Shown piece after piece: positions 48,001-54,000 of a stretch of DNA of 64,000 bases. The position numbers are program-made. How positions within the stretch are numbered: position 1 is the stretch's first letter; each line of letters opens with the position of its first letter. This DNA comes from a bacterium. Lineage in GTDB: Bacteria; Sysuimicrobiota; Sysuimicrobiia; Sysuimicrobiales; Kaftiobacteriaceae. The stretch spans positions 9,348-73,347 of the forward strand of contig JBIOWP010000107.1 of the NCBI GenBank assembly GCA_044868695.1, in the 5' to 3' direction.

Positions 48001-51000
48001 AAATCCGCCTGCTGCCGGTAGGGAACGTCCTCTACTGCTACGCCGACGGCGACCGGACGATGCTGGTCACCCGGGCCGGGGAACTGCGCAGCCACCTCTG
48101 CCTGACCCGGCTGGCGGAGCGGCTGGAGCCCTTTCGCTTCTTCCGCTGCCACCGGGCGTACCTTGTAAACCTCGACCACGTCTGCAGCGTCATCCCCTGG
48201 ACCCGCAACGCCTTCAGCCTAACCCTGGAAGGTGGGAAGGAGATTCCGCTCAGCAAACACCGCCTTCCGGCTCTGAAAGAACTTCTTGGCTGGTAGACTC
48301 GACAGACTCGACAGATCCGATAGACAGTCAGTTAGTGTGCCTTGGCTGCCGCCTTTTCTTTGTGTTCCATAATCGAGGAGGAGTGGCCGGGGAAGGCTGA
48401 GGCGCTGGGGTTGATGTAGGTGACCGCGTTGTTCACGGCGGTGGCGGCCTCGCCGAACCCTGTCACGATGAGCTTGAGCTTGCCGGGGTAGGTCGCGATG
48501 TCGCCCGCCGCGTACACGCCGGGGACGTTGGCCTCCATCTTGCTGTTGACCACGATCGAGTCGTCCTTGATCTCCAGGCCCCACTCGCGGATCGGACCCA
48601 GGTTGCTGACCAGCCCCAGGAAGGCCAGGACGGCGTCGACGGGCAGCACCTCGTCGCCCTGGGTCTTGTTGTTGAAGACTACCGCCTCGCGGACCTGCGT
48701 GTCCCCGCGGATGCCGCGTAGCTCGTAAAACACCTTGACCTTGATCGGCGAGGCAAACAGCTTCTTCACGCTGTCCTCGTGGGCACGAAAGCCATCGCGG
48801 CGGTGAATCAAGGTGATCTGCTTCGCGTAGTCCACCAGGCCGAGCGCCCAGTCCAGCGCGGAGTCTCCGCCGCCGATGACCAGCAGCCGCTTCCCCCGGA
48901 AATCTTCCTTCTGGCGCACAGCGAAGTACAATCCCTTGCCGATCCACTGATCGAGTTCCGCCCGCTTGAACGTCTTGGGGGTAAAGGCGCCGATCCCGGC
49001 GGTGATGAGGGTCACCCGTGTTCGATGCTCGCCCAGGTCCGTGCCCAGCCGGATCGTTCCGTCGGGCAGACGGTCGAGCGTGTGGACGTTCTCGTTCAAC
49101 TGCACCGTTGGATGGTAGGTCATCCCCTGCTCGACCAGATTTGTCACGAGGTCCTTCCCCAGGATCTTGGGGAAGCCGGCGACGTCGTAGATGAACTTGT
49201 CGGGGTACAGAGCGGTTACCTGACCGCCCAGGTCCGGCTGGCTGTCGATCAGCTTGGTGCGCAGCCCCCGAAACCCCGCATAATACGCGGCGAACAGCCC
49301 GGTCGGTCCGGCGCCGATGATGGTGACGTCGTACAGATCTGCCTGTGTCATCGCTCGGATTATATCATTCCCAAAATTCGGCCGGGCAGGGCGCCGGCGG
49401 TCTGGCGCGAAGATACCCCCGCTTCCGAGCGCATGGTAAAATCGAATCTGTAGTCTACAAGTCAAGAATCGTGCGCAGGAGGCAGGCATGACTCTGACAG
49501 CCCGCCCGGGCCCGCTTCTGGCCAAGGATCAGATCGAGCGGTACTCCCGCCAGACGATCCTTGAAGAGATCGGCGTCGCGGGGCAGCGCAAACTCTTGGA
49601 CAGCAGGGTGCTGATCGTCGGCGCCGGAGGACTGGGCAGCCCGTCGGCCATCTACCTCGCCGCGGCCGGGATCGGCACGCTGGGTATCGTGGACGGCGAC
49701 CGCGTCGATCTCTCCAACCTCCACCGCCAGGTGATGCACTTCACGCACGACATCGGCAGGCCGAAGACCCAGTCCGCGCGGCGGACGCTGGAGGACATCA
49801 ATCCCGACGTCACCGTCGTCCCGCACCAGACGGTCCTGACCAGCGAGAACGCGATGGACATCATTTCAGACTATGACCTCGTCATCAACGGCAGCGACAA
49901 CTTCCCGACGCGCTATCTGGTCAACGACGCGACCGTCATGTTGCGCAAGCCGCTCGTCGACGCCAGCATTCTGAAGTGGGAGGGGCAGGCCACCGTCTTC
50001 CTGCCGGGCCACGGCTGCTACCGCTGCCTGTTTCCCACGCCGCCGCCTCCGGGGACGGTGCCCAGCTGCGCCGAGGGCGGAATCGTCGGCGCGCTCGCGG
50101 GCTTCATGGGAACGCTGCAGGCGGTGGAGGCCATCAAGATCCTCGTCGGCAAGGGTGAGACGCTGGCCAACCGCCTGTTCATCTACGACGCGCTGATCGG
50201 CGAGATCCGCACGCTGCGCTGGAACCGGAATCCGGATTGCCCGGTGTGCGGCGACCACCCGACGGTCACCCAGCTCATCGATTACGAGGCCTTCTGCGGC
50301 GTGCCCGGTCGCGAGCCGTCGCATGCGCCCGCGGTCGCCGTGGCGCGCACGCCGGAGGTGTCCGTGGCCGAGGCGAAGGCGATGCTGGACCGCGGCGAGG
50401 CCCAACTGGTTGATGTGCGGGAAGTCTGGGAGTGGGTGACCGCCCGCATTCCCGGCGCCGCGCTGATTCCGATGGGCGAGCTGGCCCAGCGCATCTCGGA
50501 AATCCCCAAGGATCGCACCGTGATCATTCACTGCGCCACCGGGCAGCGCAGCGCTACTGTGACGGATGCGCTGCGCGACGCCGGATATGCCCAGACGTTC
50601 AACCTGGCCGGTGGGATCGTGGCGTGGATGAACGAACAACTACCGGTGGAAGCGGGGCCGCCCGAGAAACACCAACCGTGACCAGGGACCGGGCACCAGG
50701 GACCAGAAACCAGCCTCATACATTTCTCATGCGCGGCGAAGGAGTCGGCTCGTGACGTCTGACGGGCAAAGCGCCCAAACGACAGCTGTTTCCACCAGGT
50801 CTCGGGTCCCTGGTCCCCGGTCCCAGTCAGTTATGCGTCAGGCGATCCTGCGCGAGCCGCGGCAAATTGAGCTCATCACCCGTCCCGTTCCCATGCCGGG
50901 GCCGGGGGAAGTGCTGCTGCGCGTGCGCGCCGCGCTCACCTGCGGGACCGATCTGAAGACCTACCGCCGCGGGCATCCGAAGGTGCCGTTCGGCCCATTC

Positions 51001-54000
51001 GGCCATGAGTGCGCCGGCGACGTTGCCGCGGTGGGCCGCGGGGTCCATCACATCCGTGAGGGCGACGCGGTGGCGCCGACGCCCACGGCACCCTGCGGCG
51101 TCTGCTCGTCCTGCCGGCGCGGCCGCGAGAACCTCTGCGAAAGCCAGTTTGAAGGCATCGTGCTCGGCGCGTACGCGGACTACCTCCTGGTGTCCGCGAG
51201 GGTCGCGGCCAGACACCTGCTCCGCAAGCCTGAGGGCCTGTCGTACATTGAGGCCGCGTTCCTGGAGCCGCTCTCGTGTGTCATCCACGCGTGGGAGCGC
51301 CTGCGCCCCCGTCCGGTCGAGCAGGTCGCCGTGGCCGGGCTGGGTGCAATCGGACTGCTGCACATCAAAATGGCGAAAGCCGCGGGAGCGCGCGTCATTG
51401 CGGTCGGCCGCCGCCAGGAGCGCCTCGACCTCGCGGCGCGGCTGGGCGCCGACGCGGTCGTGGACACGCAGCAGCCGGGGGTCGCCGAGCAAGTCCACGA
51501 GCTTACCGGCGGTCTCGGGCCCGATCTGGTCATCGAGTGCACGGGGAGCCCCGCGCTGTGGGTGGAGTCCCCGCGGTGGGCCGCTCCGGGCGGCCGCGTC
51601 GTCTTGTTCGCCGGCCTGGCGGCCGGCACGCAGGTCGCGTTCGACGCGACCCGGCTGCACTATGAGGAAGTGGATATCATCAACACGTTCCACTACAGGC
51701 CGCGTGACGTGGACGAGGCCCACCACCTGCTCGCGACCGGCGGCGTGGATGTGCGGCCGCTGGTGAGCGGGGTCAAGGAACTCACCAACATCATCGACGT
51801 GTTCGCTTCGCTCGACCGCGGCAACGGAGTGAAGTACGCTATTCTTCCCGAGGCGACGGCGTGGGCGTAGAAAGTCTGCGCGCGGCCGCGGCCACCAGCA
51901 CCCGCGCCGTTGTCTATCACACCTCCGACGACCTCCGCCTGGAAGATGTGCCCCTGCCCGGCATCAAGGCAGGCGAGCTCCTTGTACGCATCCGGGCCTG
52001 CGGCCTGTGCCCCGGCGAGGCAATGGGCTGGTACATGGCGCGCAAGGCGCCGCTGGTTCCCGGCCACGAGCCGGTGGCCGAAGTCGTACAGGCCGGCGCG
52101 CAGGTGACCGGGTTTGCGCCCGGCGACCGTATCTTCGTCCATCACCACGCGCCCTGCCTGACCTGCCGGTCCTGCCGGCGCGGGGACTACGTGCACTGTC
52201 CCACTTTTCGCCGGACGAAGCTCGTGCCGGGCGGCCTGTCGGAGTTTGCAATCGTCCCGGAAGAGATCGTGCGCGGCGACGTGCTGCGAATTCCCGACGG
52301 GCTGTCCGATGAGGCCGCGACGTTTGTCGAGCCCCTGGCATGTGTGGTGAAGGCAGTCCGCCGCGCGGGCATGGCTCCCGGCGACCGGGTGCTGGTCATC
52401 GGTCTGGGCGTCATGGGGATGCTGCACGTGATGTTGGCCCGCAGGCTGGGAGTGGACCTCCTCATCGGCGCCGACCGCGTGCCGTCTAGGCTGGCCCGTG
52501 CCGCAGGCAGCGGCGCGCACGCCGTCGTTGATGTAACACGCGAGTCGCTGGACGAAGCGGTGCGGGCCCGCACCGATGGGCAGGGCGCCGACGTTGTCAT
52601 CGTCGGACCGGGAACGGTCGAGGCGATGGACCTCGGATTTCGCTGCGTCGCCCCCGGAGGCACGCTGGTGCTGTTTACGCCTACGCCGCCCGGCGTGGTC
52701 TGGCCGTTCAACGCTCACGATGCGTACTTCCGTGAAATCCAGATCGTGCCGAGCTACTCTGCGGGTCCGCCGCAGACGGAGGAAGCGCTGCAGTGGCTGG
52801 CGGACGGCCTGCCGGTAGAGACGCTTGTCACGCACCGGTACTCTCTGGATGGCGCCGCAGAGGGGTATCGCCTGGTGCGCGAAGCTACTGAGGCTCTGAA
52901 AGTCGTGGTCAGGCCGTGAACGAGCACCCCGAGGACAGCAGCTGCGAATTGCCCGGCGCCGCGCCGCAGGACGGGCGTCGGCACCGGCGGTTCGACGGAG
53001 CGGCGTGGGACGGCGTCACGCCCCAGGTGTACAAGCTCGGCGGAGCCGCGGCCCCGGGGGCCGGCTGGCGGGACGTCATTCGCCACACGCTGCTCGGCGG
53101 TGCGGGCGAGCCCGCGGCGTTTCAGCTGCGCTACTTCGAGATCGCGCCCGGCGGATACTCGAGTCTGGAAAAGCATAGGCACGTGCACTCGATTGTCGTA
53201 CTGCGCGGTGCCGGCACCGTGATCGTCGGCCGCGACGTGTTCGACGTGGGGCCGCTCGACCTGGTGTACGTTCCCCCGGAGGCACCCCACCAGTTCGTGA
53301 ACGCGGGATCCGAGCCGTTCGGGTTCCTGTGCCCGGTGGACGCCGACCGCGACCCGCCGCAACCCCTCACCGCAGAGGAACTGCGCGCCTTGCTGGACGA
53401 TCCCAAGGTCCGCCAGGCCGTGCGGATTGGAGAAACTACGGGACCAGGGACCAGGGACCTGGGACCTGAGGCGGTTGCTGAGAAGAGTCGTTACTGGTCC
53501 CCGGTCCCGGGTCCCCGGTCCCGCATTTGAGGCGTGTTTGACTTGGCGTCTCACGGCGCGTAGAATGTGCGTGGAGGTCTTCTCTCGATGATCACCATCA
53601 CCGATCAGGCCGCGACGAAACTCAAGGAGCTCCTGCTGACACAGGAGCAGCCCGACCTCTACCTCCGGCTGTTCATCCAGCCCGGCGGGTGCGAGGGGTT
53701 TTCGTACGGCATGGGGTTCGATGCCGAGCGTCGCGATGACGACCAGATCTTTGAGCGCGGCGGGGTGAAGGTGCTGGTGGACGCCACCAGCCTTCAGTAC
53801 CTGAGCGGCGCGCAGATCGATTACGCGAAGTCGACCTTCGGCGAAGGCTTCACTGTCCGCAACCCCAACGCGGTGTCCACGTGCGGGTGCGGGCACTCGT
53901 TCAAGACGCGCCATGCCGAGGGCCGGCCCGAGCCGTGCGACGACGCGACGGCGCAAACACAGACGACTCAAGCTTAGGAGCGCAGCGATGGCACAGCAGG

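Follow-up and report, generated by a model that had tools for sequence, protein, structure and literature searches.

A dehydrogenase pair as a candidate source of DXP from SAM by-products in bacteria lacking Dxs

How does a bacterium that retains the MEP pathway obtain DXP when DXP synthase (Dxs) appears to be missing? The 64,000-nucleotide stretch analysed here (the window) comes from a genome in which Dxr, IspD, IspF, IspE, IspG, IspH, MtnA, MtnP and SpeD all score over curated cut-offs (299 bits for the MTA phosphorylase model TIGR01694, 442 bits for the MtnA model TIGR00512). We estimate a probability of about 0.7 that two dehydrogenases encoded in the window, DH1 and DH2, supply DXP from SAM by-products in Dxs-less bacteria, a predicted enzymatic activity.

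Apparent absence of Dxs and of a RuBisCO-like protein

The best score of this genome against the Dxs model (TIGR00204, cut-off 466) was 133 bits, for a transketolase, and a search with PF13292 gave 25 bits at most. A hidden or split Dxs was considered, and the partial matches examined were whole or split transketolases. On contig C141 the gene order is nusB-acyP-ispA-tlyA, with no gene separating ispA from tlyA. A RuBisCO-like protein (RLP) was not detected either by PF00016, in any of five genomes including this one, or by tblastn with an RLP as query, in a genome that is 95% complete. The first-pass annotation had described Dxr and IspD-H together with MtnP and MtnA in the absence of Dxs and of an RLP, as well as an empty dxs slot on C141, and all of this was borne out.

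The cassette and its surroundings

Three overlapping plus-strand ORFs (50833..53530) form a cassette; the genes relevant to it are the following.

49488..50681, plus strand: moeZ-like ThiF-rhodanese gene, left flank of the cassette slot
50833..51870, plus strand: DH1 (g01836), 345 aa, Zn-dependent MDR dehydrogenase, predicted NADP(H)-type by G192-R193-R194, with no acid
51861..52919, plus strand: DH2 (g01837), 352 aa, Zn-dependent MDR dehydrogenase, predicted NAD(H)-type by Asp205
52916..53530, plus strand: cupin (g01838), 204 aa, homologue of the R. rubrum MTXu-5P methylsulfurylase Rru_A2000
53567..53977, plus strand: iscA/erpA, right flank of the cassette slot
55895..56815, plus strand: spermidine synthase-like aminopropyltransferase, an MTA source, 2.4 kb downstream on the same strand

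The ORFs, the domains PF08240 and PF00107 in both DH1 and DH2, and the match of the cupin to PDB 3jzv (Rru_A2000; E 2.7e-28) agree with the earlier description of two Zn dehydrogenases and a cupin homologue. A GTG at position 50752 is a possible alternative start of DH1; the extra N-terminal stretch is not conserved among relatives. Both dehydrogenases are well under every NCBIfam cut-off, and the proteins retrieved by a homologue search are unnamed or carry generic names only. Among proteins of solved structure, sorbitol, xylitol and threonine dehydrogenases come closest; such relatives are generic polyol enzymes, so the sequence leaves the substrate unfixed. The catalytic Zn ligands (Cys, GHE, EP), the four-Cys structural Zn site and the GxGxxG motif are invariant in both clades. 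The coenzyme residue is Asp in 118/118 DH2 sequences, compared with Gly, Ala or Val in 73 of 85 DH1 sequences (the remaining 12 have the NAD-type Asp), a signature by which DH1 is likely an NADPH reductase and DH2 likely an NAD+ oxidase. In a quick tree each protein falls in a clade of its own, and DH2 forms a single branch (SH-aLRT 99) with a sister clade, DH3, which adjoins LsrF in 21 of 22 cases.

The metal-binding His motif (H87 in 60/60 cassette cupins, H89 in 57/60, H91 in 58/60) and C139 (60/60) are conserved, and the cupin was aligned to 3jzv; Warlick is said to have described in 2012 a catalytic role for the conserved Cys of the MTXu-5P methylsulfurylase. A repeat specific to this genome encodes the C-terminal tail of the cupin.

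The aminopropyltransferase is linked to the cassette in only 7 of 81 loci. The region covered by the window is one of sulfur and methionine genes. Such a setting favours a reading in which the cassette would only detoxify or recycle SAM by-products, by sulfur salvage or by turning ribulose-1-P into xylulose-5-P that enters the pentose phosphate pathway, and in which a thiamine enzyme such as transketolase or pyruvate dehydrogenase E1 would form DXP as a side reaction. Transketolase and E1-like proteins are encoded in the genome, AceE has been invoked for Dxs-less Acidobacteria (PMC5462960), and the cupin gene is followed by methionine synthase in two Eremiobacterota loci and by tal-pgi and rpiA in seven loci. 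However, the known product of the cupin is DXP, and tblastn of the genome with the cystathionine gamma-synthase of the window revealed no second Cys/Met PLP homologue of the MetY type. Together with the distribution described below, we consider recycling alone an unlikely explanation.

Distribution of the pair

In a sample of 81 genomes of the phylum, Dxs was over its cut-off in two and Dxr in 74, extending the 2 of 49 and 31 of 31 reported in the first-pass annotation. DH1 and DH2 occur together in 54 of the 81, and the cupin is present in 52 of 55 DH1 carriers. As stated earlier, the cassette is missing from about a third of the phylum genomes (26/81), a point in favour of mere recycling, and 24 of these 26 also lack Dxs, which weighs against DXP supply by the pair. 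The slot between the moeZ-like gene and iscA/erpA is occupied across the phylum by the cassette, by a YjbQ-subfamily gene (found in 18 of the 26 cassette-less genomes vs 2 of 55 cassette carriers) or, in two genomes (G046 and G047), by dxs. A clean swap of the cassette for dxs was rejected, since all six genomes of that genus are cassette-less and four of them lack Dxs. LsrF proper, found in 6 of 81 genomes, was likewise rejected as a phylum-wide alternative. Fisher tests of these co-occurrences overstate significance because related genomes are not independent.

In GTDB, the 80 best loci of DH2 include the cupin in 58 and DH1 in 48 cases (57 and 47 in the earlier count). The pair is present in 12 of 13 Dxs-less Nitrospirota, which probably represent one or two lineages, vs 35 of 158 Dxs-bearing ones, and is kept though unlinked in four of the five Dxs-less genomes fetched. 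Eremiobacterota carriers have no Dxs (0/5). Dxs is, however, kept by those 35 Nitrospirota and by 10 Binatia carriers, and in a further sample of five carriers it was over the cut-off in three and partial in one. The previously cited background of 181 Dxs-less species among about 4400 is correct as a figure but a poor comparison for cassette carriers, because more than half of that list consists of Wolbachia.

Among 111 Binatia genomes sampled, Dxs was found in 10 of 64 having two high-scoring matches to the dehydrogenases, vs 13 of 14 in a group with LsrF-DH3 instead. Among the 31 genomes without a match, those tested from two large groups encode HMG-CoA reductase (5/5) and MtnA (4/4) but not Dxr (0/4). 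The pair-less Binatia groups are either mevalonate users, with MtnA but no Dxr, or Dxs keepers; at least one Dxr-positive genome (G281) has neither Dxs nor the pair. That mevalonate users retain MtnA yet show no pair argues against a role confined to recycling, as does the presence of DH1 and DH2 within isoprenoid operons of separate lineages. The order hpnH-ispA-DH1-shc-dxr-hpnC was seen in all 12 Dxs-less Binatia fetched, probably one family, one of them reaching its contig end after DH1; 3 of 8 Dxs-bearing Binatia fetched have ispA-dxs-tlyA. Of 80 loci, 18 have hpnH immediately before DH2, and two Kryptonium loci have idi between DH1 and DH2.

The proximity of DH1 and DH2 to hpnH and shc in Binatia could also mean that these enzymes modify the side chain of hopanoids, converting ribosylhopane to bacteriohopanetetrol, and a Zn-dehydrogenase gene, ug2, is known from acidobacterial hopanoid clusters (PMC5462960). 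Nevertheless, shc, hpnH and hpnC gave no tblastn match in our genome, which excludes this function here unless shc falls in an assembly gap, and the mevalonate-using Binatia, in which 3 of 5 fetched loci place shc next to HMG-CoA reductase, show no pair. A hopanoid role is therefore highly improbable.

The cupin is optional: among ten pair-bearing Binatia tested, it gave one clear match and two weak ones, and was not found in seven. A YjbQ gene lies within the shc-dxr-hpn cluster of 16 Binatia, all of which carry the pair too. The idea that YjbQ strictly replaces the cupin was rejected, as the cupin stands beside DH2 in one of five YjbQ-positive and one of five YjbQ-negative Binatia. YjbQ was also rejected as a general partner of MEP genes, though it is kept as a lead: at 80 metagenome loci, many on short contigs, none of dxr, dxs, RLP, DH1/DH2 and cupin was nearby, and hopanoid genes were near two.

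Proposed route to DXP

In the MTA-isoprenoid shunt of Rhodospirillum rubrum and Rhodopseudomonas palustris, MtnP and MtnA are followed by the DeepYkr RLP Rru_A1998, the cupin Rru_A2000 and OAHS sulfhydrylase, with glutathione as the thiol acceptor in R. rubrum. The genome studied here shares MtnP, MtnA, a clear Rru_A2000 homologue and the downstream MEP pathway, and the net reaction proposed for it likewise takes MTRu-1P to DXP. In place of an RLP, which was not found, a pair of dehydrogenases accompanies the cupin. Many pair carriers have no cupin, no MetY homologue was found here, and glutathione or bacillithiol genes gave no match in a search with short motifs only. Since hosts of the cassette are often Dxs-less, they would depend on this route as their principal DXP source rather than as a shunt.

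MtnP and MtnA, whose steps are known from R. rubrum and whose genes are present here, would convert MTA to 5-methylthio-ribulose-1-P and 5'-deoxyadenosine to 5-deoxy-ribulose-1-P. DH1 and DH2 would then act as a two-step redox isomerase doing the job of the RuBisCO-like 1,3-isomerase, for which SorE and SorD, converting sorbose-1-P via glucitol-6-P to fructose-6-P, provide a precedent. By their predicted coenzymes and putative substrates, DH2 would oxidise C4 with NAD+ and DH1 would reduce C2, the carbonyl next to the phosphate, with NADPH. The methylthio series would yield MTXu-5P, to be desulfurised to DXP by the cupin, whereas the deoxy series would give DXP directly, with no need for the cupin. 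Similar chemistry is carried out by members of the same superfamily, namely sorbitol, galactitol-1-P and D-arabitol-phosphate dehydrogenases, the last of which forms xylulose 5-phosphate from arabitol phosphate in Enterococcus avium and Bacillus methanolicus (AtlD) (PMC6685057); unlike these polyol-phosphate enzymes, DH1 and DH2 form their own clades and no PTS genes were seen beside them.

The first-pass annotation had the pair replacing the RLP and feeding DXP. This core idea is supported by clade-wide co-occurrence with Dxr-positive, Dxs-negative genomes, by loss of the pair in mevalonate-using Binatia that keep MtnA, by the position of DH1 directly after ispA and before shc-dxr, and by the opposite coenzyme signatures; it remains a prediction whose details need revision. 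A fixed route via MTA and the cupin does not fit the pair-bearing Binatia that often lack the cupin, so the route need not use MTA, and 5'-deoxyadenosine may feed DXP directly. The proposed order, reduction of C2 before oxidation of C4, which would pass through an arabitol-1-phosphate, is somewhat disfavoured. The sister clade of DH2 adjoins LsrF, the P-HPD thiolase of AI-2 breakdown (PMC8016206), and by this analogy we lean towards oxidation first, with the 2,4-diketone P-HPD or a methylthio counterpart as the intermediate. Oxidation of 5-deoxyribulose-1-P at C4 is expected to yield P-HPD. The neighbour of LsrF differs from that of the AI-2 system, being the Zn-dehydrogenase DH3, and lsrK and lsrG were not recognised beside it, although no search aimed at them was made.

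SAM by-products may fall short of the isoprenoid demand of hopanoid makers, a point of reasoning rather than calculation. P-HPD could, however, be filled without SAM if LsrF ran in reverse, joining DHAP and acetyl-CoA, and DH1 reduced the product to DXP, the SAM-derived feed being only one of two. This would ease the flux problem, and the LsrF that adjoins DH3 in nearly every case is over its cut-off; two genomes without Dxs or DH2 (G266 and G320, the latter with Dxr) have LsrF-DH3 and DH1 or a DH1-like gene, a combination that also speaks for the main reading. Yet LsrF has been characterised in the cleavage direction (PMC8016206), most LsrF-DH3 carriers examined retain Dxs, and LsrF proper is scarce in the phylum and was not found in this genome, which has a homologue at 159 (cut-off 297) that is better placed in another aldolase family. 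Reverse LsrF cannot be the main route in this genome, and a feed of this kind is quite unlikely in general. A broader picture, which we regard as unlikely, would make P-HPD a hub of DH1, DH2, DH3 and LsrF: carbon of 5'-deoxyadenosine or MTA would enter by NAD+ oxidation and leave as DXP (DH1) or as DHAP and acetyl-CoA (LsrF). Reversed LsrF together with DH1 would build DXP from DHAP and acetyl-CoA, needing no thiamine enzyme and losing no CO2, and in the third of the phylum that has no cassette, DXP would be formed by yet another, unrelated enzyme, the Cys-loop YjbQ subfamily.

Supply of DXP by DH1 and DH2 would be set apart from the laboratory bypasses of Dxs, AceE and RibB mutants (PMC10663253, PMC13001223), which also make DXP without Dxs: those are mutant side activities, whereas DH1 and DH2 would form a conserved gene pair dedicated to the task. 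According to a 2023 survey of 4,400 species, some alternative to Dxs probably exists, but for the 181 Dxs-less species it could offer candidates in only 9 cases; four of these, all cultured, have the cupin without an RLP (Table S2), and Thermodesulfovibrio yellowstonii is cultured, Dxs-less, cupin-positive and RLP-negative (PMC10663253). DH1 and DH2 offer a concrete candidate for this gap in at least four lineages, including a nearly wholly Dxs-less phylum, and two orphan dehydrogenase clades and the LsrF-linked DH3 clade gain testable substrates. If the P-HPD hub exists, it would be one previously unrecognised, and reverse LsrF with DH1 would be a new entry to the MEP pathway. If DH1 and DH2 do supply DXP, an open gap in the isoprenoid synthesis of Dxs-less bacteria would be filled, engineering would gain a way round the feedback-inhibited Dxs step, and SAM waste would be a main source of isoprenoids, no longer a side shunt.

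Isoprenoid synthesis genes and the three-gene cassette

The host genome (95% complete) encodes Dxr, IspD, IspF, IspE, IspG, IspH, MtnP, MtnA and SpeD, all of which pass curated cut-offs. The top score for dxs in this genome, 133 bits against a cut-off of 466, came from a transketolase, PF13292 reached a maximum of 25 bits, and on contig C141 tlyA immediately follows ispA. No genes for a RuBisCO-like protein (RLP), HMG-CoA reductase, squalene-hopene cyclase or HpnH were found in the host genome. The three-gene cassette claimed in the first-pass annotation was confirmed in the window as overlapping genes.

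50833-51870, + strand: DH1, Zn-dependent medium-chain dehydrogenase
51861-52919, + strand: DH2, Zn-dependent medium-chain dehydrogenase
52916-53530, + strand: cupin, match to R. rubrum Rru_A2000
50804-50824, 53440-53467, 53495-53522, 54257-54277, 54389-54416, 22814-22936, 34445-34549: 7-base tandem repeat

The cassette is flanked by a moeZ-like gene on one side and iscA on the other. DH1 and DH2 are about 30% identical, score under the cut-off of every NCBIfam model, and have sorbitol, xylitol and threonine dehydrogenases as their nearest solved structures. The cupin matches the structure of Rru_A2000 (3jzv, E 2.7e-28), described as the R. rubrum MTXu-5P methylsulfurylase (PMC4334135, PMC4958253), and all 60 cassette cupins retain its His87 and Cys139. 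The host genome has another methylsulfurylase-like cupin, 57% identical, which is solitary on contig C40 (L137:8373-8888), with no dehydrogenase near it, and several family members also have two. At three loci of one family (L019, L041, L136), the cupin after DH2 is of a lower-scoring type and on the opposite strand, which suggests a separate acquisition.

The 7-base repeat is REP-like: it forms inverted pairs, both intergenic and within the 3' end of the cupin gene, where it encodes the C-terminal tail, and the host genome has 76 such arrays versus two in one shuffle. The window also contains a sulfur-carrier cysteine synthesis set (40682-45719 and 49488-50681) comprising cystathionine gamma-synthase and beta-synthase-like genes, a SAMP/MoaD-like carrier, a CysM-like synthase, a JAMM peptidase, MoeZ and an SbnI/SerK-like gene (43541-44395), as well as a fused homocysteine methyltransferase-MTHFR and a tandem of two short genes for cobalamin-independent methionine synthase (57974-61956).

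Distribution of the dehydrogenase pair

By its named relatives, the host belongs to Ca. Sysuimicrobiota or lies next to it. Across 81 genomes of the phylum, including the unpublished G007 and G072, dxs exceeded the cut-off in two and Dxr was present in 74; DH1 was found in 55, DH2 in 54 and both in 54. Of the 55 genomes with DH1, 52 also gave the cupin. The cassette is missing from 26 genomes, 24 of which also lack Dxs, and 18 of these 26, versus 2 of the 55 carriers, encode a distinct YjbQ/UPF0047 subfamily between moeZ and iscA (L150, L151, L166-L185). This subfamily, with a Cys-containing loop insertion in 34 of 36, also occurs in 16 Binatia genomes within the shc-dxr-hpn cluster (L217-L232, L308, L312, L313), directly before dxr in three; all 16 retain the pair. 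It is a candidate DXP-related enzyme; 80 YjbQ loci in metagenomes had almost no isoprenoid neighbours and gave no support for a general link. None of DH1, the slot-type YjbQ and Dxs was seen in seven genomes of the phylum, one of them 77% complete and the others 83-94% where a value is listed; two of the seven carry LsrF with DH3, a Zn-dehydrogenase related to DH2. The sole two Dxs genes of the phylum sample (L139:9190-11088, L002:1483-3387) directly follow moeZ, in the opposite orientation, and occupy the slot that holds the cassette elsewhere, which is only suggestive because the whole genus of those genomes lacks the cassette.

The earlier tally covered carriers only; here, whole clades were sampled with one profile mixing DH1 and DH2, on a local calibration of at least 338 bits for full-length DH1/DH2, 327-349 for DH3 and at most 250 for other dehydrogenases. 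Thirteen of 171 Nitrospirota genomes (completeness at least 90%) gave no dxs, and two matches above 380 bits were seen in 12 of these 13 versus 35 of the 158 with dxs, with misses possible because only 12 candidates were scored per genome. In the five Dxs-less genomes examined the matches were DH1 and DH2, unlinked in four, where the cupin lies about 2 kb from DH2. Eleven of the 13 have genomes of 1.6-2.0 Mb and are probably one lineage.

The 111 Binatia genomes (including the unpublished G342) have two matches in 67 cases, one in 13 and none in 31. Three low-scoring doubles (G320, G336, G344) were grouped with the 11 singles that share their sampling group; dxs is present in 13 of these 14, and the match was DH3 beside LsrF in 6 of 6 examined. 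The remaining 64 doubles include 10 with dxs, all of a lower-scoring type, and one genome (G266) with DH1 and DH3; the singles G325 and G353 fall outside both groups. Only one of the 31 match-less genomes has dxs, and those tested, from two large groups, had HMG-CoA reductase (5/5) and MtnA (4/4) and no Dxr (0/4), with Dxr found in 5 of 5 match-bearing genomes tested. Thus, the pair follows the MEP pathway in Binatia, while MtnA stays. That the cassette serves salvage only, with DXP coming from AceE or transketolase, as has been considered for DXP supply (PMC5462960), appears unlikely.

In these two large groups the mevalonate pathway has replaced MEP (L314-L318), and HMG-CoA reductase directly adjoins shc and hpnC/D in three of five of their loci. 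The match-less genome G281 (L216) has Dxr and shows neither the pair nor Dxs, and G231 likewise shows no Dxs and no pair, through gaps in the assemblies or use of a further route. None of five Eremiobacterota carriers has dxs; of five other carriers, three have dxs and one a partial match.

The order hpnH-ispA-DH1-shc-dxr-hpnC was seen in all 12 Dxs-less Binatia examined from one sampling group (one contig stops after DH1); the position right behind ispA is that of dxs in three of eight Dxs-bearing Binatia examined. In a different set, 18 of 80 loci have hpnH just upstream of DH2, and two Kryptonium loci have idi between the two dehydrogenase genes. Therefore, DH1 and DH2 entered isoprenoid operons separately. 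With such neighbours, the pair might be assigned to a hopanoid side-chain step, but this is highly improbable because no hopanoid genes were seen in the host genome and shc occurs without the pair in Binatia that use mevalonate.

Coenzyme residues and proposed reaction

In all 118 DH2 sequences the residue ending the second Rossmann strand is Asp (NAD-type). Of 85 DH1 sequences, 73 carry Gly, Ala or Val at this position, with Arg as the next residue in 68 (NADP-type), and 12 carry Asp. A driven isomerisation needs an NAD+ oxidase and an NADPH reductase, and we infer from these residues that DH2 and DH1 would match those needs.

Gene content, distribution, gene order and residues are observations, and the substrates, coenzymes, step order, direction and sufficient flux of the pair are proposals. 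Stereochemically, shifting the carbonyl of ribulose-1-P from C2 to C4 would give xylulose-5-P after renumbering, provided that reduction at C2 yields the D-arabitol configuration. In whichever order, C4 would be oxidised by DH2 and C2 reduced by DH1. Reduction first would yield arabitol-1-phosphate, for which arabitol-phosphate dehydrogenase offers a precedent (PMC6685057). Oxidation first would yield a 2,4-diketone, in the deoxy series P-HPD, the substrate of LsrF (PMC8016206; the NCBIfam name agrees). We favour oxidation first because DH3, the sister clade of DH2 (SH-aLRT 99 in a quick tree of 74 rows from 231 distinct sequences), has the NAD-type residue in all 22 sequences and adjoins LsrF in 21 of 22.

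LsrF-DH3 loci occur in three phyla (L131, L132, L196-L203, L254-L258, L260, L271) and suggest degradation of 5'-deoxyadenosine carbon to DHAP and acetyl-CoA; at L197 a RuBisCO-like gene is directly upstream. G266 and G320 possess a DH1-type gene and LsrF-DH3 and lack DH2 and Dxs, which fits both this route and the oxidation-first order. A SAM-independent feed via LsrF is quite improbable, and it is impossible as the main route in the host genome.

Of 10 match-bearing Binatia tested, 7 gave no cupin (8 if a lower-scoring copy is left out): one has a clear cupin, one a lower-scoring cupin beside DH2, and the rest only distant cupins or none; 8 of the 10 have no copy adjoining DH2. In the deoxy series the cupin would not be required for DXP; R. 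rubrum MtnP accepts 5'-deoxyadenosine (PMC4958253).

Relation to the MTA-isoprenoid shunt

Three Chloracidobacterium species and T. yellowstonii are listed as cupin-positive, RLP-negative and Dxs-negative in PMC10663253, the consulted part of which names no isomerase for these four species; that of PMC13001223 mentions neither MTA nor cupin nor YjbQ. Full-text searches, judged by result lists and the first lines of abstracts, with subscription journals mostly outside them and some results dominated by plant DXS, showed no paper that proposes a dehydrogenase pair for the isomerase step of the shunt. In its working the cassette route would resemble the MTA-isoprenoid shunt, yet strictly it does not belong there, since the RLP that defines the shunt was not found in the host genome. 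We consider it probable (roughly 0.7) that the dehydrogenase pair, in place of the RLP 1,3-isomerase, supplies DXP to the MEP pathway.
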